From contig OZ271918.1 in the NCBI GenBank assembly GCA_965602015.1, positions 3,648,001-3,712,000 of the forward strand: a DNA stretch of 64,000 nucleotides. Reading direction: 5' to 3'. This document shows positions 1 through 35,271 of this stretch, one piece after another (the stretch's first letter is position 1; each line of letters begins with the position of its first letter). The notes beneath the pieces are model-generated. The model did no database searches. It saw only the letters and a list, made by a program, of their open reading frames with translations, and was not told the origin of the DNA. The DNA comes from Salinispira sp. Lineage in GTDB: Bacteria; Spirochaetota; Spirochaetia; DSM-27196; Salinispiraceae. The position numbers and the translations under genes were made by a program.

Positions 1-158
1 GGTTTGGCATAGAGAGTGCTCTTATTCACCCCCTTCAGCCTGCAAGCCTGTTCCAAGTCATACCATTCCTGGTCAAGACGAACAGAGTCGGAAATCAACT
101 CCTTCAATTCTTGTATCTGTTGCTTCAATTCCGTTATTTCTGGGATGGATAGTTCCAT
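1..158 (-). CDS. Excisionase-like helix-turn-helix DNA-binding protein (runs off window start)
   Basis: Not in ORF track. GAGGAGG RBS then ATG at 158. Reads MELSIPEITELKQQIQELKELISDSVRLDQEWYDLEQACRLKGVNKSTLYAK..., an Xis/HTH_17-like pattern. Directly downstream of the integrase. Confidence 0.75.
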   Translation of the reverse strand, partial: MELSIPEITELKQQIQELKELISDSVRLDQEWYDLEQACRLKGVNKSTLYAK

Positions 159-25247: not shown

Positions 25248-26804
25248 ATGCGATACAGACTCATCACTATCTTATTTGCCTTCATTGCCGTCAGCTCGGA
25301 CGTCTATGCCCTGGATTACCAGGCAATCGTTGCGCCGGCGGAACAGCTGCTCGAGGAATTTTCTTCCGGCGTCCAGATCGTGCCGGGACTTTGGGAGCAA
25401 AATGCCCTCGCCCTCGCGGACAGCGAATATCTGCCCGATGAACACACCGAATTGCTGCTTAATTTTAATGGAAATACCGTCGGCGAACTCATGGAAAGCG
25501 GCGCTCTGTACGGGGTGGCAGCCTCCGGTGCGCGGATACAGCAGATGGAGCGCTACCGGGGATCCGGCTCGGCAATGGTTTTGCCGGGAAGGGGTATCGA
25601 CCTGATTGCCGGACAGGGGAGTATGTTTTATCCGGGCACAGCGTGGAATGATTTTTCCATGGAATTCTGGATATATCCCGCAGGCTTCCGCGACGGTGAA
25701 ACAGTTTTTTCCTGGAATGGTACCAGCTGGCTGGGCGAAGAGCCCGTCCTGCAGGAAATCAGGGTATCTGCCCGACGGGGAAGATTGACCTGGGAGTTTG
25801 ATGACTTTTTTATCCGGCTCGGTCTTGTTCCGGAGCAGGGGGTTTCAGTGTTAAGCAGCACTGTGAGCCTCGAGAGCCGTAGAGAAATATTGCCGAGAAC
25901 CTGGAGTCATCATTTGGTGCGCTATGACAGCTCCAGCGGAGCCCTGGAATATCTCATCGACGGGATCAGTGAGGCGATCACCTACGTCAGCGACACTGGC
26001 CGAGAGGGTGGGGAGCCGCTGTTACCCTATGTGGGGGATGAGTCGGAAAATCGAATTCGAATAGCCCCTAATTTCCACGGGTTTGTCGATGAGTTTCGAA
26101 TTCAACGGGAGTGGGTCAGCGAGCCGACCCTCGAAATTGCAGAGGATAGTCCGGGGATAGCCCTTGTGGGACCGGTAGACCTGGGAGATGACAGTGTGCG
26201 GATAACCGGGTTTTCAGCGGAGTTCCGGACTCCCGGAAACACAGACTTGAGGTTTTCGATTATGCAACGGGATGCCTATTCCCCAATCAGCGCCGATCAG
26301 ATTACTGATGACCGTTTTTGGTCCTTCGTCGAGCCTGGGTCGATTGACCCTCAGCTTTCAGGCAATGCATCCGGCAGGTACGTATATATGAGGGTGGAAT
26401 TCCTCCCCGACGGCAGTGATGCGAACATTCCGCTGCTTCAAACTGTCAGGCTCAGCTACCGTCGTCAGCCTGCGCCGCCGGCCCCGGCGGCTATTCGCAG
26501 CGTCGCGGGTAACAGTTCGGTATTTCTCAGTTGGAGCGATATTCCCAGTGCTCCCGTAGAGGGCTATCTCCTGTACTACGGCGACAGTCCGGGCCAGTAC
26601 TTCGGTACTGATTCGGACCTCGGCCCTAGTCCCGTTGATTTGGGTAATGTGAGATTTGCTGACGTGACCGGCCTCGAAAACGGCAAAATGTATTATTTTC
26701 GTATAGCAAGCTATAATAACTACAACAGTCCGCAAAGCGGTCTGTATAAAGAGCGAAATATCAGCAGGGAGGTTTTCGCGCGACCGTCGCGAACTCTGGA
26801 ATGA
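25248..26804 (+). CDS. Secreted protein with LamG/ConA-like and fibronectin type III domains
   Basis: Signal peptide MRYRLITIL. LamG pattern FSMEFWIYP, WSHHLVRY, FHGFVDEFRI. FN3 pattern LSW...GY...GLENGKMYYFRIASYN. Confidence 0.75.
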   Translation: MRYRLITILFAFIAVSSDVYALDYQAIVAPAEQLLEEFSSGVQIVPGLWEQNALALADSEYLPDEHTELLLNFNGNTVGELMESGALYGVAASGARIQQMERYRGSGSAMVLPGRGIDLIAGQGSMFYPGTAWNDFSMEFWIYPAGFRDGETVFSWNGTSWLGEEPVLQEIRVSARRGRLTWEFDDFFIRLGLVPEQGVSVLSSTVSLESRREILPRTWSHHLVRYDSSSGALEYLIDGISEAITYVSDTGREGGEPLLPYVGDESENRIRIAPNFHGFVDEFRIQREWVSEPTLEIAEDSPGIALVGPVDLGDDSVRITGFSAEFRTPGNTDLRFSIMQRDAYSPISADQITDDRFWSFVEPGSIDPQLSGNASGRYVYMRVEFLPDGSDANIPLLQTVRLSYRRQPAPPAPAAIRSVAGNSSVFLSWSDIPSAPVEGYLLYYGDSPGQYFGTDSDLGPSPVDLGNVRFADVTGLENGKMYYFRIASYNNYNSPQSGLYKERNISREVFARPSRTLE

Positions 26805-29800
26805 AACGTAGCGCACTCGAAGAAATGATCGGTCGGGCGAGACACGCCTATACCCTTCATGATTATGAAACTGCTGAAAATCTCGCCCTGGAAGTGGTAA
26901 AGGCCGCGCCGAAATCCGCCGCCCCGCGAATATTGCTCGGCACGATTTATGGAAGCCAAAAAAGATACGACGAAGCCGAACGGTTTTTCCTGGAAGCCCT
27001 GGATATCCGGGGGGACATCCCCGAAGGCTACAATAACCTGGGGGTTATTTACCGGATACAGGGTCGGTACGAGGAAGCTGAGTTTGCCCTGAAAAAAGCC
27101 CTGGAACTCAGTCCCGATAGGGGCGATATCTTCTACAACCTGGGAAATATCTATAAGGAACAGCAGCGGAGCATCGACGCCGTCGATGCGTATGAGAACA
27201 GCATACGTATTAATCCAGATTTTATTTTAGCGTACAATAATCTGGGAACCCTGTACGAGAAGTCCGGTGATTATGAGAAGGCTCTGGAAGTCTACGGCAG
27301 GGCTCTGGAACGGGATTCAAATCACCCGACCATACTCTATAACCGGGGCATAAGCCTTCAGGCTCTCGAACGCCTGGAAGACGCTGAGAAGAGCTTTCGC
27401 TCAGCGCTCAACAGCCGCCCCGGCTGGACCGATGCCCTCAACAATCTGGGTATCTCCCTCCAAAAACAGAACCGCCTCGATGAATCCGGTGAAGCGTTCA
27501 AGGAAATACTCAGGCTCGACCCGAATAATTTTACCGCGCAGAACAATCTCGCCACGACCTATCTTCATCAAGGCTGGACGGAAGACGCCCAACAGCTCTA
27601 CCGAAAGGCTCTCAAAAAGAATCCCCAGTATTCGAAGGCAGCGGTCAATCTCAGCCATATGATCAGTAGGCGGGAAAGTGATGAGTCCGGTCTGGATGAA
27701 CTCGCCGGGCTGCTGGAAGCTAATCCTGATAACAGCGAACTGAAATTCCGTTACGCTCAAAGCCTGTACAAGGCAAAGAAGTACCGGGAATCCGAAGGCC
27801 TCATTTTGGAACTTATCGGGGAATCACCTGACAATCCGGATTACCTGCGCCATGCCGGGCTTCTGTACTCGGCGATGGGCCAGCCGGATCAAAGCAGCAA
27901 ATACTTCGATAAGCTGCTTGCGGTCAAGCCCGATGCCCAGGACTATCTGATAGAGCTGGCTGAACAGCAGTTTGCAAGCGGAAAGCACAGCGAAGCGATG
28001 GGTCTGCTGAGGGACTACATCCAGATCTACCCCCGGGATTACCGATCGCGTAAAACCTTGGCGGAATATGCCATGAGGCGAGGAGATTATAACACCGCGC
28101 TCCAGGTTTTACAGGAAATCAAAACCGACTATCCGGAAGACGGGGCAGTGCTTGCCCTCCTGGCCCAGGTATATCAGCACCTGAACCAAAAAAATGAGGC
28201 GATTGAAACGGCGGTCGAGCTTATTAATTTGCAGGGCAGCCGGGCGAACTCCGATGACCTGAGTGCCTTGAACGAAAGTCTTGCGCTGTACGAGCAGGCT
28301 GCGGGGGCATTCGACGAGGATTTTGGCGACGCCTGGGCTGAGAATCTCGAGCGTCTGGGCGCCATAGGCAGCGATGCCGATGTGGAAGACGACGGCGAAG
28401 CCTATGACATGGAGGTAACCGACGGCTACGAGGAAGATCTGGTTCCGATTCTCGATTTCGGCGGTGATAATTTCTTTCTTGAAGAGATGGACTTCGAGGA
28501 TGACGATGACATGCTCGAGGAAGAGGTCGAGGAAGTTGAGGAAGAGCTCGATGAACTCGCGCCGAATCTCATGAGTCTGGTTGACGGCGGTTCGGGAAAC
28601 GAAAGCGCTTTTGCACCGTACGATACCCCGGCGTCGCCGCCGGCCGCGCCCAGCCTCCAGCCCCAACAGCCCCAACAGTCGCCGCCGGCCGCGCCCAGCC
28701 TCCAGCCCCAACAGCCCCAACAGCCGCCGCCGGCCGCGCCGAGCCCCCAGCCCCAACAGCCGCCGCCGGCCGCGCCGAGCCCCCAACCCCAACAGCCGCC
28801 GCCGGCCGCGCCGAGCCCCCAGCCCCAACAGCCGCCGCCGGCCGCGCCGAGCCCCCAGCCCCAACAGCCGCCGCCGGCCGCGCCGAGCCCCCAGCCCCAA
28901 CAGCCGCCGCCGGCCGCGCCGAGCCCCCAGCCCCAACAGCCGCCGCAAGCCGCACCGAGCCCCCAACCCCAACAGCCGCCGCCGGCCGCCCCAAGCCCCC
29001 AACCCCAACAGCCGCCGCCGGCCGCCCCAAGCCCCCAACCCCCGGCATCACCGGAGCCCAGGGCGCGTGACGGACATCCCCCGGAATCTGCAGCCGAGGA
29101 AGAGTTTGCCGAACCCTCTGTCGACCTGCTACCCGATGAAAACGAGGCTTCTGAAGATATTCCGCAGAGTGGTAATGCTGACGACCCTTCCTCCGAAGAT
29201 GAGACATCCCAAGAGGATGAAGAGACCGCCGACTTTGACGGGTATTTTGATGAGCCCGGCGATGAAGGTCCTCACATCCCCGACGATCAGATTCTCCCCG
29301 AGGATGAACCTGTCGAGCTGGCGGATGACATGTTCGACCATGACGTGTTTTCCGACGATGATGATCCGGATGATATGGTCGATGAACTCGACCCGGATCC
29401 GGAGCAGCCGATTGCTGATTCCTTGGAGGATTCCGATAATGAGCTGCCGGTTTTCGAGGATGAGGCTGTTGAGGATGAGGGTATTGAAGATGGAGAGGCC
29501 GAAGAGCCCGAGTCTGATTATCTTCCCGAGGCGGGGTCGCATTCGGATTTTGATGATGACATAGACGAGTCCCGGGACGAGGTCCCCGAAGAGGACACGG
29601 TTATCGATTACGGTCTTGGTGAAGAAGATGCTCCGGATGATGAACTTGGCGAACTTGAGGAGCTGGAGGAACTCGATGAGCTTGACGAGCCCCTTCCCGA
29701 GGAAGATAACGCGCCCGAATCGGCGGAGCAGGAACCTAAAGGGCCTCCCCTCGGTTCCTCGGTTTCTTCTGAACCGGAACCCCGGGCTGTTGCCGGCGTC

Positions 29801-30268
29801 AGCAATGAGGCCTCGGCGAAAATGTTCGATTACCTGTTGAGTCTCGCTGGCAATCTTCCGGAGGGCAAGCAAAAGGCCATGGAGCTTCAGGAGTTGGGTG
29901 ACCGGGTGACCCGATTGAAGGAAAAACTGATGGCAGGGGGTGTTCCGACGGTGAGGGATATTCCTGATGATCAGCCTCCGGTCAGCGCCACATCGACGGC
30001 ACATGCCGGCGAAGGGCCTTCACCCGAATCCTCGGCCCCGGGGAAAACCCTGACAAATGAATCGGCCCCCCGGCGTTCAGCGGCCCCCGCGGATTCCGGT
30101 AAATCCGAGGAAGTCTCGAAGGGTAACCCCCTTGCAAGCCTGTTCGAAACTCTTCGCTTCGCCAAAGACCTCTCGGAGGCGGTGCCCGACGCGGATGCTG
30201 AACGGCTCAGGGGTAAGATGCGGAATATCCGGGATAAGCTGCGTAAGATCAATGAACGGCTGAATTAG
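26801..30268 (+). CDS. Large TPR protein with Pro/Gln repeat and acidic disordered region
   Basis: Many YNNLG/YNLG TPR units in the N-terminal half, low-complexity C-terminal half, 4-bp overlap with the upstream gene. Confidence 0.85.
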   Translation: MKRSALEEMIGRARHAYTLHDYETAENLALEVVKAAPKSAAPRILLGTIYGSQKRYDEAERFFLEALDIRGDIPEGYNNLGVIYRIQGRYEEAEFALKKALELSPDRGDIFYNLGNIYKEQQRSIDAVDAYENSIRINPDFILAYNNLGTLYEKSGDYEKALEVYGRALERDSNHPTILYNRGISLQALERLEDAEKSFRSALNSRPGWTDALNNLGISLQKQNRLDESGEAFKEILRLDPNNFTAQNNLATTYLHQGWTEDAQQLYRKALKKNPQYSKAAVNLSHMISRRESDESGLDELAGLLEANPDNSELKFRYAQSLYKAKKYRESEGLILELIGESPDNPDYLRHAGLLYSAMGQPDQSSKYFDKLLAVKPDAQDYLIELAEQQFASGKHSEAMGLLRDYIQIYPRDYRSRKTLAEYAMRRGDYNTALQVLQEIKTDYPEDGAVLALLAQVYQHLNQKNEAIETAVELINLQGSRANSDDLSALNESLALYEQAAGAFDEDFGDAWAENLERLGAIGSDADVEDDGEAYDMEVTDGYEEDLVPILDFGGDNFFLEEMDFEDDDDMLEEEVEEVEEELDELAPNLMSLVDGGSGNESAFAPYDTPASPPAAPSLQPQQPQQSPPAAPSLQPQQPQQPPPAAPSPQPQQPPPAAPSPQPQQPPPAAPSPQPQQPPPAAPSPQPQQPPPAAPSPQPQQPPPAAPSPQPQQPPQAAPSPQPQQPPPAAPSPQPQQPPPAAPSPQPPASPEPRARDGHPPESAAEEEFAEPSVDLLPDENEASEDIPQSGNADDPSSEDETSQEDEETADFDGYFDEPGDEGPHIPDDQILPEDEPVELADDMFDHDVFSDDDDPDDMVDELDPDPEQPIADSLEDSDNELPVFEDEAVEDEGIEDGEAEEPESDYLPEAGSHSDFDDDIDESRDEVPEEDTVIDYGLGEEDAPDDELGELEELEELDELDEPLPEEDNAPESAEQEPKGPPLGSSVSSEPEPRAVAGVSNEASAKMFDYLLSLAGNLPEGKQKAMELQELGDRVTRLKEKLMAGGVPTVRDIPDDQPPVSATSTAHAGEGPSPESSAPGKTLTNESAPRRSAAPADSGKSEEVSKGNPLASLFETLRFAKDLSEAVPDADAERLRGKMRNIRDKLRKINERLN
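28634..29041. repeat. Coding tandem repeat: two 45-bp units plus about nine 36-bp units
   Basis: Encodes (SPPAAPSLQPQQPQQ)x2 then (PPPAAPSPQPQQ)x~9. Contiguous, no spacers. Confidence 0.95.
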
Positions 30269-30275
30269 CGGAATA

Positions 30276-30303
30276 TTGACAGCCCGGCGGGAAACGCTAT
30301 AAT
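30276..30303 (+). promoter_or_regulatory. Sigma70 promoter of the phe leader/pheST
   Basis: TTGACA-N16-TATAAT with both hexamers perfect. Confidence 0.85.
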
Positions 30304-30315
30304 ACTGATACGATA

Positions 30316-30399
30316 ATGAAAACCCGAATACCTCGAGACAGTTTTTTCTTCTTTTTTAGCGTTAGCGGATGCGAGGAATCCGGGATTCTCCATAGATAA
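30316..30399 (+). CDS. Phe-rich attenuator leader peptide (pheM-like)
   Basis: MKTRIPRDSFFFFFSVSGCEESGILHR with five consecutive Phe codons at 30343-30357, between the promoter and a terminator upstream of pheS. Confidence 0.85.
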   Translation: MKTRIPRDSFFFFFSVSGCEESGILHR

Positions 30400-30419
30400 T
30401 AAATCTACGGGAGCAAAAC

Positions 30420-30452
30420 GGATTCCTCTGGAAAGGGGAATCCTTTTTTTTT
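30420..30452 (+). terminator. Attenuator terminator hairpin upstream of pheS
   Basis: ggattcctct-ggaa-aggggaatcc then T9. The left arm is also complementary to gaggaatccg (30373-30382). Confidence 0.9.
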
Positions 30453-30523
30453 AGTCGCTGCTTCCGGTCTTATCCCGGGGGGCCGGATGCCGGCGCTTAC
30501 AGCGATATAAATAGGAGCGATGT

Positions 30524-31567
30524 ATGGATCAGAAGCTTCAACAGATGATGGCGGATTTCCACAAGGGGATTCCATCGGTCTCTTCACTTCCCGAGATGGC
30601 TCAGTTCAAAGCCGAGTATCTCGGAAAAAAGGGCCGACTCAAGGCACTCATGTCCGGCATGAGGGATATGTCCCCCGAAGAGCGGAGCAGTTTCGGCGCT
30701 ATGGCAAACCGGTCAAAGGAAGAGATGGAGACTGCCATCGCCGAGGCCGGCACCCGCATTGAAATGGAAGAAATTAATAAAAAACTCGAGGCTGACTGGC
30801 AGGATATCAGCTTGACTGACCGAATCAAGGATCTCGGTCAGCAGGCCGCGGGCTTTCATCCTGTCAGCGGCGTCATGCGGGAGCTTGAAGACATCTTTCT
30901 TTCCATGGGCTTTGATATCCTTGACGGTCCCCACATTGAAGATGAGTATCATAATTTCACCGCGCTTAATATTCCGGCCAATCATCCCGCCAGGGACATG
31001 CAGGATACGTTTTGGTTTACCGATAAAAAGCATCTGCTCCGAACTCACACCTCACCCATACAGATTCGGGGTATGGAACAGCACAAACCTCCTTTCAAAT
31101 TCGTCGGTCCCGGCAAGGTCTTCCGCTGCGAAGCCCTGGATGCCAGCCATGAGGCCGCTTTTCATCAGCTTGAAGGCATGATGGTCGGAAAAGATATTTC
31201 CGTATCGCATATGATCCACTTCCTGCGCACCCTGCTTGCGGAAATATTCCGTAGGGAGATAAAGGTCAGGCTCCGTCCGGGGTTTTTCCCCTTTGTTGAG
31301 CCGGGCTTCGAACTGGATTACGAATGCATGATCTGCAAGGGCAAGGGCTGTTCGGTCTGCAAACAGGTCGGCTGGGTCGAGGCCCTGGGCTGCGGAATGG
31401 TTCACCCCAACGTCCTGAAGGCCGGGGGTATAAATCCCGAAGAATGGAACGGTTTTGCATTCGGTCTGGGGGTCGACCGTCTCACCATGATGCGCTACCA
31501 GATAGACGACATCCGCCACCTTCACGGCGGAAACCTGCTCTTTTCCGAGCAGTTCAAGGCGTACTAA
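30524..31567 (+). CDS. pheS: Phenylalanine--tRNA ligase alpha subunit
   Basis: HPARDMQDTF, LRTHTSP, FHQLEG, FPFVEP, GCGMVHP and GFAFGLGVDR motifs. Confidence 0.98.
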   Translation: MDQKLQQMMADFHKGIPSVSSLPEMAQFKAEYLGKKGRLKALMSGMRDMSPEERSSFGAMANRSKEEMETAIAEAGTRIEMEEINKKLEADWQDISLTDRIKDLGQQAAGFHPVSGVMRELEDIFLSMGFDILDGPHIEDEYHNFTALNIPANHPARDMQDTFWFTDKKHLLRTHTSPIQIRGMEQHKPPFKFVGPGKVFRCEALDASHEAAFHQLEGMMVGKDISVSHMIHFLRTLLAEIFRREIKVRLRPGFFPFVEPGFELDYECMICKGKGCSVCKQVGWVEALGCGMVHPNVLKAGGINPEEWNGFAFGLGVDRLTMMRYQIDDIRHLHGGNLLFSEQFKAY

Positions 31568-31586: not shown

Positions 31587-34010
31587 ATGAAAATTAGTCT
31601 GGATTGGATACAGGACTTCACTGAGCTTCCGTCGGATCTCAGTCCGCAGGAAATCGGCGCCCGGTTTACCCTGTCGACCTGCGAGGTCGAGGGAGTGGAG
31701 GTGAGCAATGCACATCTGGAGGAGGTTACGGTAGCCGAAGTGACTGCCGTCGAGCCCCATCCCGAGGCCGATAAGCTTCAGTTGGTGAGATTCTCCACCG
31801 GCGACGGCGAGCGACAGGTGGTCTGCGGCGCGCCGAATGTGGCGGTAGGCCAGAAAGTCCCCTTCGCCCCGGTTGGAACAACCCTTCCCATAGGCTTCAC
31901 CCTGGAGCCGAAAAAAATCCGCGGCGTTCTAAGCGAGGGCATGCTCTGCGCCGAGGATGAGCTCGGTCTTGGAGAGGGCCATGAAGGGCTGCTGATTCTC
32001 GATCCCGGAGCCCCTGTCGGACAGACCCTTGGAGAATACCTGGGGATCAAGCGCGACGTTCTCCTGGATATTGATAACAAATCGATTACCCACCGTCCGG
32101 ATCTCTGGGGCCACTACGGCATGGCCAGGGAATTTGCCGCGGCATTTGGAAAGACCCTTGCCAGGCCTTTTGACCAGGCATGGGAGAAGTCCCTCAAGGA
32201 GCGCTTCGACGGCGGTGAATCACCGGTCAGCGTCGAAGTGCAGGAGGGAAGCGCCTGCCTGGGATACCTGGGGCTCAGCGTTGACGGCATAACTGTCCAG
32301 CCAAGTCCCCAATGGATGCAGCAACGGCTTATTTCATGCGGGCTTCGTCCTATTAATAACATCGTCGATATATCCAACTACGTGATGCTTGAGCTCGGTC
32401 ATCCGAACCACATTTTTGACCGGGACACCATCCACGGGGGCAGGATTATCGTGAAGGATATGGACGGGGAGATCACCTTCGTGACCCTCGACGAGATGGA
32501 GCGGACCATCGTTCCCGGCGACACCATGGTCTGCGATGCCGAAGGTCCCTCGGTAATCGGCGGCATCATGGGGGGGCTGGACAGCTCGGTCAAGGACGGC
32601 ACCAGCCGGGTGTTTATTGAAGTTGCCAATTGGGTCGATGCCCGGATTCGTCACACATCCACCCGTCTCGGTCTCCGCACTGATTCGAGCCAACGATATG
32701 AAAAATCCCTCGATTCGAACGGCATGGAGCGGGTGGTGCTGCGCATTCTCGAACTTATCGTGGAAAGCTGCCCCAAGGCAAAGGTCCGGGGAAAGATCGA
32801 AGCCGATGGAGTAAAGTACACCCCCGAGTTGAACATCGAGCTGACTCCCCGACGGGTCAACTCGATTTTGGGAACCACCCTGGATGCCGAACAGATCAGT
32901 TCCTACCTTCGGGCCCTGGACTTTTCCGTACAGAGCGGCGAGGGCGACGCCCTCACAGTGGGCGTCCCCAGTTTCCGGGCGACCAAGGACGTTGAAGTTG
33001 ATGCGGACCTGATCGAAGAGGTCGGGCGGATCCACGGCTATGACAAGCTGGAACCACTGGCGCCGCACAATGAAATTACCGCCGTGAGACTCTCTCCAGG
33101 AAAACGCCTGGAGCGAAAAATCGCAGATTTTCTGGTGTACCGGGGTCGGGCCCTGGAAGTGTACAGTTACCCGATGGTCGGCGAGAAGCTCCTCGATCAG
33201 GCTGCATGGCATGTGAAAAACCCCACATTAGTTCTGGCAAACGCAATCAGTCCGGAGACCGACAGGATGCGCCCGTCGCTGGTTCCCTCTCTTCTGGAAA
33301 AAACCGCGCTGAACCAGAAAAACTATACCCGCAGCCGGTTCTTTGAGATGGGGCGAAGCTATGTGGAAGACGATAAAAACTTCAGCGAGGACCGTCATCA
33401 GCTGGGAATCGTGTATTACGATAGAAGTTCTTCTCCATTCGTGGAGCTGCTCAATCTGCTGCAGGACTTGTTTGCCAATGTGAGCATCAACGCCCGATTC
33501 ACCGAGCCCTCGGAAAAACACCCAAATCCCTTTCATCCCCAAAACTGGCTAGGATGTCATCCCCGGGAAATGCTCGAGGTCCGGGTGATGGGAAAGACCG
33601 CGGGATTTGTCACCAGCATTCACCCCCTCATGAACCGAAATTTCAAGATTAAGGGCAATGTGGCAATGGCCCTCATCGACATGACCGATTTCATGGAACG
33701 GGAGATTCCCGATAAAACTACATACCTCCCGCTGCCCAAATACCCGGGTTCCACCTTCGATTGCACTGTGACAACAGATCACCGAACTCCGGTAGCGGAA
33801 ATCGTCGCTGCGGCTTCCAAGGCGGGCATTAATGAAATGGTGGATCTCCGCATTGTAGACGTCTATGCTCCGTCGGGTCAGCCCAAAGCCGTAACCCTCA
33901 GGGTGTGGTTTCTGGACAGGAAGAAAACCCTGAGCCCTGAGTTTATTGCTTCGGCGGAGCAGAAGCTTATCGAAACCCTGGAGAGCCGCGGTTTTCCGTT
34001 GAAGCAGTGA
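31587..34010 (+). CDS. pheT: Phenylalanine--tRNA ligase beta subunit
   Basis: HPEADKL, VCGAPNV, SEGMLC, INNIVDISNYV and DLIEEVGRIHGY motifs, C-terminal FDX-ACB domain. Confidence 0.98.
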   Translation: MKISLDWIQDFTELPSDLSPQEIGARFTLSTCEVEGVEVSNAHLEEVTVAEVTAVEPHPEADKLQLVRFSTGDGERQVVCGAPNVAVGQKVPFAPVGTTLPIGFTLEPKKIRGVLSEGMLCAEDELGLGEGHEGLLILDPGAPVGQTLGEYLGIKRDVLLDIDNKSITHRPDLWGHYGMAREFAAAFGKTLARPFDQAWEKSLKERFDGGESPVSVEVQEGSACLGYLGLSVDGITVQPSPQWMQQRLISCGLRPINNIVDISNYVMLELGHPNHIFDRDTIHGGRIIVKDMDGEITFVTLDEMERTIVPGDTMVCDAEGPSVIGGIMGGLDSSVKDGTSRVFIEVANWVDARIRHTSTRLGLRTDSSQRYEKSLDSNGMERVVLRILELIVESCPKAKVRGKIEADGVKYTPELNIELTPRRVNSILGTTLDAEQISSYLRALDFSVQSGEGDALTVGVPSFRATKDVEVDADLIEEVGRIHGYDKLEPLAPHNEITAVRLSPGKRLERKIADFLVYRGRALEVYSYPMVGEKLLDQAAWHVKNPTLVLANAISPETDRMRPSLVPSLLEKTALNQKNYTRSRFFEMGRSYVEDDKNFSEDRHQLGIVYYDRSSSPFVELLNLLQDLFANVSINARFTEPSEKHPNPFHPQNWLGCHPREMLEVRVMGKTAGFVTSIHPLMNRNFKIKGNVAMALIDMTDFMEREIPDKTTYLPLPKYPGSTFDCTVTTDHRTPVAEIVAAASKAGINEMVDLRIVDVYAPSGQPKAVTLRVWFLDRKKTLSPEFIASAEQKLIETLESRGFPLKQ

Positions 34011-34011
34011 G

Positions 34012-35271
34012 ATGGCAGTGGTGAAAAACCGCTTTACTCCCTTCTCCATATATCGCCAGCTCGGCCGCCCGGTGTACGTCATCGTGGCGGCCACCATTAT
34101 CAATCGCTTCGGCGATTTCGTCTTTCCCTTCCTGGCTCTCTATCTTACAACCCGCCTGGGTTACCAGGAATCCGCGGCGGGATTCACCGTCATGCTGGTG
34201 GGAAGCGGCAGTTTCATCGGAGCCCTGGCCGGCGGAAGGATTGCCGACAAATACGGGCGCCGGCGGCTTTTGACCGGTGCATACGCATTGTCGGGGCTTG
34301 TTATTTTCATGGCGGGTTTTCTCGTCGAGGACCCGTCCATGCAGGCGGTTCTGTTGCCCATACTGGTGGTTAACGGGATGACAAAAGGCGCGGTGCGGCC
34401 TGCGCTCCGGTCAATCCTTACTGACCTTAGCCGTCCCGAGCGGCGAAAGGACGCGTTTTCACTTAACTATCTGGGAATTAATATCGGCGTTGCCCTCGGG
34501 CCTCTTGTAGCGGGCTTCCTGTTTGAGAATTTTCTTTCCTGGCTGTTTTGGGGCGATGCATTGACCTCGACTGTTGCAGCTATTCTCATCCTGAGCTTTG
34601 TCCCGGAATCCAGACCGGAAAATGATCATGAACTGACGGGTGACGAAGCGTTCGAGAACGATCCACCTATCCGGGCGTTTTTGCGCCGCCCCCTCGTCCT
34701 GCTCTTCACCATCGCCATGGCTTTTCAGGGACTGGTTTATGCCCAGTTCGGATTCTCCCTGCCGCTGCACATCAACACCCTGTTTGAAAACGGTCCCCGG
34801 CGATTCGCCCAGGTCATCAGCTTTAATGCGGTTTTGGTCCTGGCTTTGACGCCCCTGTTTACCCGCCTGACGGCAAAGTACCACGCGCTGGTCATGAGTG
34901 CCGTGGCGTCGGCCCTTTATGTCGTGGGATTCGGCGTCCTTGCCTTCGAACCTGTGTGGGGGATTTTCTTCGGGGTGACGGCGGTGTGGACTTCCGGGGA
35001 AATTATTGCAGTGATACACCAAATGGGGTATTTCTCGCGGCTGATCCCCGGCAATTACCGGGGTCAGTTTAACTCTTATTCTTCAATCATGATGCAGGCC
35101 GCCCATGTGGGATCTCCCGCCATCGGCGGCCTGGTCATCGCCGCGGCGGGCATTTCCGGGTTGTGGGCGGCAGTTTCATCCCTCGCGGCGCTTTCCATTG
35201 CGGGCTTCCTGCTGATGTGGCGCTATGAGGAGCGCTTGCGCTACAAACCGCCGGTGAGCAGCGCTCGGTAA
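34012..35271 (+). CDS. MFS transporter
   Basis: About 12 TM helices, motif A GRIADKYGRR. Confidence 0.9.
   Translation: MAVVKNRFTPFSIYRQLGRPVYVIVAATIINRFGDFVFPFLALYLTTRLGYQESAAGFTVMLVGSGSFIGALAGGRIADKYGRRRLLTGAYALSGLVIFMAGFLVEDPSMQAVLLPILVVNGMTKGAVRPALRSILTDLSRPERRKDAFSLNYLGINIGVALGPLVAGFLFENFLSWLFWGDALTSTVAAILILSFVPESRPENDHELTGDEAFENDPPIRAFLRRPLVLLFTIAMAFQGLVYAQFGFSLPLHINTLFENGPRRFAQVISFNAVLVLALTPLFTRLTAKYHALVMSAVASALYVVGFGVLAFEPVWGIFFGVTAVWTSGEIIAVIHQMGYFSRLIPGNYRGQFNSYSSIMMQAAHVGSPAIGGLVIAAAGISGLWAAVSSLAALSIAGFLLMWRYEERLRYKPPVSSAR

Follow-up and report, generated by a model that had tools for sequence, protein, structure and literature searches.

The locus described here raises the question of whether a short, phenylalanine-rich open reading frame (ORF), placed between a promoter and an intrinsic terminator, serves a spirochaete as an attenuator of its phenylalanyl-tRNA synthetase (PheRS) operon, and how such an arrangement came to stand in this genome. 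The window, by which we mean the whole 64,000-nucleotide stretch of Salinispira sp. DNA that was analyzed, carries on its plus strand pheS (30524..31567), coding for a bacterial-type PheRS alpha subunit of 347 amino acids (TIGR00468, 296 bits; cut-off 237), and pheT (31587..34010), coding for a bacterial-type beta subunit of 807 amino acids (TIGR00472, 619 bits; cut-off 403). The archaeal-type model PRK04172 remains under its cut-off on this pheS. The closest named relatives of the PheS protein are titled Salinispira sp., Spirochaetaceae, and Thalassospirochaeta, in agreement with the spirochaete host that had been guessed from the letters alone. Our answer to the first question is that the pheST leader is a real and conserved element and, judging from the models and comparisons presented below, very probably a functional attenuator of the classical kind.

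The leader region is compact. A −35 box TTGACA (30276..30281) and a −10 box TATAAT (30298..30303) with a 16-nt spacer match the consensus at 12 of 12 positions, and the promoter thus deserves the word perfect that the original prediction gave it. Usual sigma-70 spacing would place the start of transcription near 30309-30311. The ATG of the leader ORF (30316..30399, 27 codons, MKTRIPRDSFFFFFSVSGCEESGILHR) follows 12 nt past the −10 box and has no Shine-Dalgarno (SD) sequence. Its codons 10-14 (30343..30357) read TTT TTC TTC TTT TTT, so both the ORF and its run of five Phe control codons are present as first described. Segment 1, the protector strand (30323..30335), can pair with segment 2 (30372..30384), the 5′ strand of the antiterminator, which lies within the leader ORF; this helix can be drawn as proposed, albeit with two mismatches (11 of 13 pairs). 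The core of segment 2 (30373-30382) is complementary, without a mismatch, to 30419-30428 within segment 3 (30419..30429), and the 10 base pairs claimed as perfect are indeed so. An inner hairpin of the antiterminator is predicted by folding to span the leader stop codon (30388..30413). Segment 3 is common to the antiterminator (2:3) and the terminator (3:4), the latter formed with segment 4 (30434..30443) as a stem of 10 base pairs with a 4-nt loop (30420-30443), followed by the expected tract of nine U residues (30444..30452). Computed energies are −26.4 kcal/mol for the whole 2:3 domain, −15.0 for 3:4, and −16.7 for 1:2.

Generic scans do not single out this region: a loose local search gave chance levels of promoters (one versus 0.8 expected) and terminators (three versus 2.0), and the minimum free energy z-score is only −2.0. 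The combination of features is nevertheless rare. There are only four perfect TTGACA-16..18-TATAAT promoters in the 3.87-Mb genome and only two short ATG-initiated ORFs with FFFFF, and the sole Phe site genome-wide that combines promoter, run, and terminator precedes pheS. The pheS SD sequence AGGAG (30513..30517) is unpaired in both folds tried. Between the terminator and this SD, which it does not cover, lies a stable branched hairpin (30454-30506, plus strand); its length is not conserved, and the corresponding spacers vary widely among homologs.

Based on this anatomy, we propose that the near-leaderless ORF and the alternative 1:2, 2:3, and 3:4 helices very likely constitute a transcription attenuator of the ribosome-mediated kind, by which PheRS production would rise when charged tRNA-Phe is scarce. 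Polymerase would start approximately 5-7 nt before the leader AUG, and a ribosome would load without an SD. If Phe-tRNA is ample, the ribosome is expected to clear the Phe run and, from about codon 16-18, to cover segment 2, whereupon 3:4 would fold and transcription would end at the U tract. If Phe-tRNA is scarce, the ribosome would stall at codons 10-14, over segment 1, with segment 2 free; 2:3 could then form before segment 4 emerges, permitting read-through into pheST. A weaker step completes the scheme: without translation, 1:2 is predicted to favor termination, and the same helix would also bury the leader AUG in many homologs.

The switch was modeled by equilibrium folding in which the bases covered by the ribosome were forced to be single-stranded, using footprints of 6-15 nt and two assumed start sites. 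The computed probability of the terminator is at most 0.01 with A-site codons 9-14 at all footprints and both starts, as anticipated by the original claim that a stall on the Phe codons frees segment 2. It reaches at least 0.99 by codon 16-19, depending on footprint, and is 1.0 at the stop, again with the same result for both starts. The view that a ribosome at the stop masks segment 2 holds in this model, except that masking starts already at about codon 16-18. Without a ribosome, the full-length RNA gives probabilities of 0.70 for 1:2 and 0.91 for 3:4. When the RNA is cut before segment 4, however, 2:3 outcompetes 1:2 (probabilities of 1.0 and 0), and the role of 1:2 as a protector would thus need kinetic trapping.

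A search for ORFs with at least four Phe in seven codons shows that the leader is widespread before related pheS genes. Among the best 80 PheS relatives and two further loci, it is found, with no terminator required for selection, in 28 of 32 spirochaete loci, in 27 of these with a terminator no more than 90 nt from the stop, and in one of two Desulfobulbales loci. The single call among 48 other loci, mostly of Bacteriovoracia, has no terminator nearby and is a chance match. Even sampling of Spirochaetia gave 401 genomes, and a short bacterial-type PheS was found in 72 of them (E ≤ 1e-60). Two truncated genes were dropped from these, and one of the 70 analyzed loci, with 52 nt upstream, was not counted; of the remaining 69, 36 from seven families have the element (f1, 2/2; f12, 7/7; f31, 1/1; f42, 16/26; f17, 2/2; f20, 6/6; f22, 2/2), whereas 33 lack such a leader. 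Families f13, f18, f27, f35, f44, and f49 have no element. Phe-run ORFs upstream of related pheS genes, which the original prediction had suggested looking for, are therefore common in both surveys. Controls gave one promoter-less, spurious call among the 22 archaeal-type pheS loci with enough upstream DNA (of 27) and no leader in 29 native Desulfocapsaceae pheS loci. With metagenome loci included, 70 elements collapse to 47 distinct ones; because these homologs are kin, the counts show spread rather than statistical weight.

A covariance model, R1, built from 14 members of one subfamily, recovered 8 of the 24 loci searched, these 8 from other subfamilies, at E values of about 0.001 or better. 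It matched the Desulfogranum locus weakly (E = 0.29) and missed both the Desulfopila leader and the E. coli pheM locus. When searched for away from pheS among 61 relatives, the element was detected only in the three genomes of the genus, all at pheS; these matches are in or near the training set, and so the search did not find the origin of the leader.

Some script calls were set aside as spurious, including a single one in family f41 and those at L075, L013, L256, L158, and L184/L186, which have no promoter or no nearby terminator. Genus g81 and its kin (L228, L231, L237, L222/L084, L172) carry degenerate leaders that hold only approximately three to four Phe and open alike with SVYS(P/L)F; a terminator accompanies some of them, and the leaders are possibly weaker or Phe/Tyr variants. 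Genus g94 and its kin (L043, L047, L050, L208, L211) have a short PheS from the same clade, with neither a leader nor a terminator, and in L043, L047, and L050 a common conserved A/T-rich stretch, TATAAAAGGTATRAATTTA, directly precedes pheS. Intact, degenerate, and lost leaders offer a natural series on how regulation survives gene transfer.

Even if translation of the leader does operate the terminator, the signal might be something other than the charging of tRNA-Phe. The ribosome could respond to the rate at which UUU and UUC are decoded, as set by tRNA-Phe modification or slippage on U runs, or it could be stalled by a poly-Phe nascent peptide. The Phe blocks contain 277 TTT versus 105 TTC codons, which creates long U runs able to slip, and the leaders hold 5-10 Phe, often interspersed with Ser, Asn, or Tyr. 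However, the genes under control, pheST, encode the very enzyme that makes Phe-tRNA, and the peptide is not conserved outside the Phe run. In addition, other leaders in the same genome match the amino acid of their own pathway. We therefore judge this alternative improbable, and sensing of charged tRNA-Phe remains our preferred reading.

These other leaders came from a genome scan that yielded 20 promoter-terminator leaders. A leader with WWW, MLHKYSGQTFVENSSWWWLGN, and a terminator precede trpE (TIGR00564) at approximately 3104180-3104270 (L259, G000:C1, minus strand); its start lies 7 nt past the −10 box, and it is likely a near-leaderless Trp attenuator. An Ile-rich leader, MNTNIFASASRSISTIIAIALIIIDRSS, and a terminator precede the citramalate synthase gene cimA (TIGR00977) at approximately 1844050-1844190 (L260, G000:C1, plus strand), likely an Ile attenuator on the citramalate route. 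A leader with LLL, MHMYVAGRSFTAHDSLLLSQEVFSAVGVCVRRP, and a terminator precede leuA (TIGR00970) at approximately 692030-692195 (L261, G000:C1, minus strand), and a weaker LL candidate is located before leuS (~3717840-3717980, minus strand). Given these Trp, Ile, and Leu leaders, attenuation by leader peptides looks like a general habit of the organism.

The pairing logic was also examined across the 47 distinct elements. Equilibrium folding of full-length RNAs with a ribosome on a Phe codon lowered the terminator probability below 0.5 in only 13 of 47, and thus most homologs would need kinetic, co-transcriptional control. After this largely negative result we added a test in which the RNA is cut at the terminator loop, because attenuation is decided while segment 4 is untranscribed. 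Under this regime, upstream RNA binds the 5′ arm of the terminator with a mean of −10.2 kcal/mol for the Phe-stalled ribosome, −5.0 without a ribosome, and −1.2 with the ribosome at the stop; in the stalled state, binding is below −5 kcal/mol in 45 of 47. The antiterminator beats at least 95 of 100 dinucleotide shuffles in 31 of 47 elements and falls short in 16. At L052, L115, and L206, the arm pairs equally well with a ribosome at the stop. The 1:2 duplex beats shuffles in 30 elements and does not in 17; it often sequesters the AUG of the leader, and in two subfamilies it is weak.

The pairing words vary by subfamily (GAGGAATCCG/CGGATTCCTC in the window, GGAAGAAGCCC/GAGAGTTTCTTC in Oceanispirochaeta, GGGAGTC/GACTCCC at L044), and an element's own strands pair better with each other than with the median foreign one in 40 of 47 cases for 2:3 and in 39 of 47 for 1:2. 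In a 14-row subfamily alignment, 79.9% of cells pair, versus 41-63% at slid registers. Covarying stems had been another expectation of the original prediction, and here the outcome is mixed: complementarity is kept across subfamilies, but formal covariation is thin, with one pair changed on both sides in five rows of the 14-row alignment, probably by one event, and with none of 15 pairs in the RNAalifold consensus doubly changed. For the terminator, the register set by the window row is one column off, with 66% pairing as it stands and 97.6% after a slide of −1, and for this reason the terminator was not used as evidence of covariation.

It is also conceivable that translation plays no part. 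The U tract could be a polymerase pause or slippage site, or simply a pairing strand, the terminator a constitutive, leaky damper, and the ORF incidental. Such a view would fit the absence of an SD and the dominance of the terminator in the equilibrium folds of most homologs. Moreover, in the subfamily alignment RNAalifold pairs the U tract with segment 2 (C87-G124 in 14 of 14). What makes it very unlikely is the evidence that the leader is read in codons. We located the promoter without regard to ORFs and set the start at the first ATG that follows the −10 box by 5 nt or more. Of 77 distinct regions upstream of short-PheS genes in spirochaetes, 46 contain a promoter match, and in 41 of these 46 an ATG fixed 8-12 nt past the −10 box opens a Phe-rich ORF. 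With the start so chosen, single non-T interruptions of the T tract fall at codon positions 1, 2, and 3 in 1, 7, and 77 cases (77 of 85 at the third; 40 tracts), and Phe counts in the three frames of the same tracts are 339, 180, and 195. Furthermore, gaps inside the ORF in the 14-row alignment have lengths divisible by three, and the stop lies 16-40 nt ahead of the terminator in 47 of 47 elements, a terminator being a selection criterion for this set.

Our preferred reading is thus that the Phe run is translated. Only 1 of 46 regions contains an SD-like word in the stretch from the −10 box to the ATG, and at usual promoter spacing the family would have a 5′ untranslated region of approximately 1-7 nt; the sequences therefore predict that the leader is translated from an almost leaderless RNA. 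The original description of the leader as SD-less stands, but near-leaderless is the better term, and such a start is already known for other attenuators. The Sinorhizobium meliloti trpL/rnTrpL element is likewise a ribosome-mediated transcription attenuator whose RNA is called leaderless (PMC6614838), although it concerns Trp and a biosynthetic operon in an alphaproteobacterium and is likened here by mechanism only. Mycobacterial polycysteine ORFs, described in a preprint (bioRxiv 10.1101/834739), are leaderless short ORFs in which a homopolymeric codon run senses its amino acid. There, a stalled ribosome frees a ribosome binding site, whereas here the output is a terminator and the pheS SD is unpaired.

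The best-known counterpart is in E. coli, where pheST is attenuated (PMC4082710); gamma-proteobacterial pheST attenuators are also mentioned in PMC1262725. The E. coli leader gene pheM (b1715, “pheST-ihfA operon leader peptide”) resembles ours in that a short Phe-rich ORF, with five Phe codons in both, is followed by an intrinsic terminator and then pheS-pheT. In contrast, pheM has 14 codons, whereas the spirochaete leaders have 20-29 and run through the antiterminator strand. The latter also have their own promoter 8-12 nt before the AUG rather than following rplT. The E. coli gene order is infC-rpmI-rplT-pheM-pheST, whereas the gene upstream in the window encodes a TPR protein of 1155 amino acids. 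A blastn comparison of the window leader with the E. coli pheM region gave a best E value of 0.05 over 21 nt lying outside pheM, and the window pheS has no blastn match in E. coli genomes. Likewise, the leader peptide has no NCBIfam or Pfam match at E values up to 1. The pheM-like logic that the original prediction put forward thus draws support from ribosome-position folding, from conservation in the 47 distinct elements, from selection at the codon level, and from antiterminator complementarity kept across divergent subfamilies; its companion claim, that the leader is unrelated to pheM, is in keeping with negative results from blastn, R1, Rfam, peptide searches, and gene context.

Within Rfam, the nearest family is RF01859 (Phe_leader), which we take to be of the pheL-pheA type. 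It too combines a Phe codon run with a terminator, and a weak match spans 30327-30449; the window leader, which reaches 15.7 bits where the gathering score is 55 (E = 4.9), is not a member. RF01859 precedes pheA, whereas the window leader precedes a synthetase operon.

In E. coli, thrS is autoregulated by its synthetase, which binds the mRNA, and a ligand other than the ribosome might similarly control antitermination here, either PheRS binding its own leader or an uncharged tRNA acting as in a T-box. T-boxes regulate most synthetase genes in Firmicutes (PMC1262725). Either mode is very improbable for the present element, which has no T-box match in Rfam at gathering or E-value thresholds and no T-box consensus words, offers only approximately 140 nt from the −10 box to the U tract, and has a conserved in-frame Phe run that neither mode explains.

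A classical attenuator thus remains the reading we favor, and its mechanism is textbook rather than new. What is new is the attenuator family, in a lineage for which we found no report. Attenuators of pheST were reportedly predicted in several phyla by Lopatovskaya et al. in 2010, with none in spirochaetes. Our literature search, which is weak on subscription papers, found no spirochaete pheST attenuator. The main text of Naville and Gautheret 2010 (PMC2965389) contains neither “spiroch” nor “pheS,” and its supplements, like those of PMC8632094, could list candidates. With this element, the attenuation of tRNA synthetase operons by leader peptides reaches into Spirochaetota, and an RNA family is described for which Rfam, Pfam, and NCBIfam have no entry. 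The element would also imply coupled transcription and translation and almost leaderless initiation in free-living spirochaetes, with which the Trp, Ile, and Leu leaders concur.

The second question, how the operon came to be here, has a more surprising answer. An archaeal-type PheRS has been put forward as a derived trait common to Spirochaeta, Borrelia, and Treponema (Andam and Gogarten, PMC3191353). For the same genes and in the same group, the present genus has the short bacterial type instead. Among 60 relatives, the two that belong to the same genus have a PheS at 83-84% identity. Of the 58 relatives outside the genus, 53 have only a long archaeal-type PheS (~30% identity, with frames mostly of 516-620 amino acids), and five yielded no match. 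Of 18 genomes tested with the archaeal-type pheT model, four score above its cut-off, three from the family and one from the order, whereas none of the 14 with a short PheS does so; the two forms of PheRS are thus mutually exclusive in this sample.

In two family members (G003 and G005), the TPR gene that stands upstream of the leader in the window is followed by an archaeal-type pheS. The gap between the TPR gene and pheS is approximately 96 and 133 nt in these genomes versus 255 nt here, and flanking genes are held in common. The arrangement in both genomes examined with long flanks points to displacement of archaeal-type pheST in place. In another genome of the genus (G002), promoter, leader, and pheST are found together in a different neighborhood. 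Furthermore, quick trees, midpoint-rooted and without Leptospira and Brachyspira as named rows, place PheS of the genus together with that of families f12 and f31, which belong to other orders (SH-aLRT 100). The original prediction had missed that pheST of the window itself appears to be a transferred replacement, which in this genus would undo the archaeal-PheRS character used to define the group.

A comparable pattern occurs in another phylum. Desulfopila sp. IMCC35008 belongs to a family in which 116 other matches share 39-47% identity with the window PheS and in which native pheS genes follow rplT in nearly all of 29 cases examined. Desulfopila sp. IMCC35008 alone in its family has a 66%-identical PheS copy with a Phe leader. 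At its thrS-infC-rplT locus the native pheS is gone, and a C-terminal pheT-like remnant of 327 amino acids is located behind rplT (G421, L267:4782-5765, minus strand), approximately 1.5 Mb from the spirochaete-type pheST and leader. In an 18-row quick tree, constraining the Desulfopila PheS to group with three native PheS of the family is rejected (p-AU 3e-7). This PheS joins the L044/L048/L051 group, and the Desulfopila leader aligns with the corresponding subfamily of leaders, although its −10 box is not recognizable. In Desulfogranum marinum, the start codon of the leader reads ATA and segment 2 is lost, and this leader looks like one in decay.

Synteny and tree placement suggest a joint transfer of promoter, leader, and pheST between lineages, apparently as one self-regulating unit, so that an essential synthetase operon would have traveled with its regulator. 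We speculate, with considerable reservation, that this unit is a plug-in, self-tuning synthetase cassette that has repeatedly displaced resident PheRS, in place for the archaeal type and across phyla in Desulfobulbales, and that built-in feedback enables a foreign, essential two-subunit enzyme to take over. This broader proposal is possible but doubtful, and clearly less secure than the attenuator itself.

Several features of the flanking genes and of more distant relatives were observed in addition. The TPR gene upstream of the leader (26801-30268, plus strand) encodes a long Pro/Gln/Ala tandem repeat and an acidic linker. A gene for an MFS transporter (34012-35271, plus strand) begins 1 nt past the pheT stop and is therefore probably co-transcribed under the attenuator; it had no match in the fetched homologous loci, most of which end before that position. 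The PheS proteins of Bacteriovoracia (L058-L110) are 61-65% identical to that of the window, lie among the spirochaete short PheS in quick trees, and are far from those of E. coli and Desulfocapsaceae, which hints at another cross-phylum transfer, here with no leader. In Halobacteriovorax (L098, L102, L103, and L106), a conserved structured region that ends in a terminator-like hairpin is situated before pheS.
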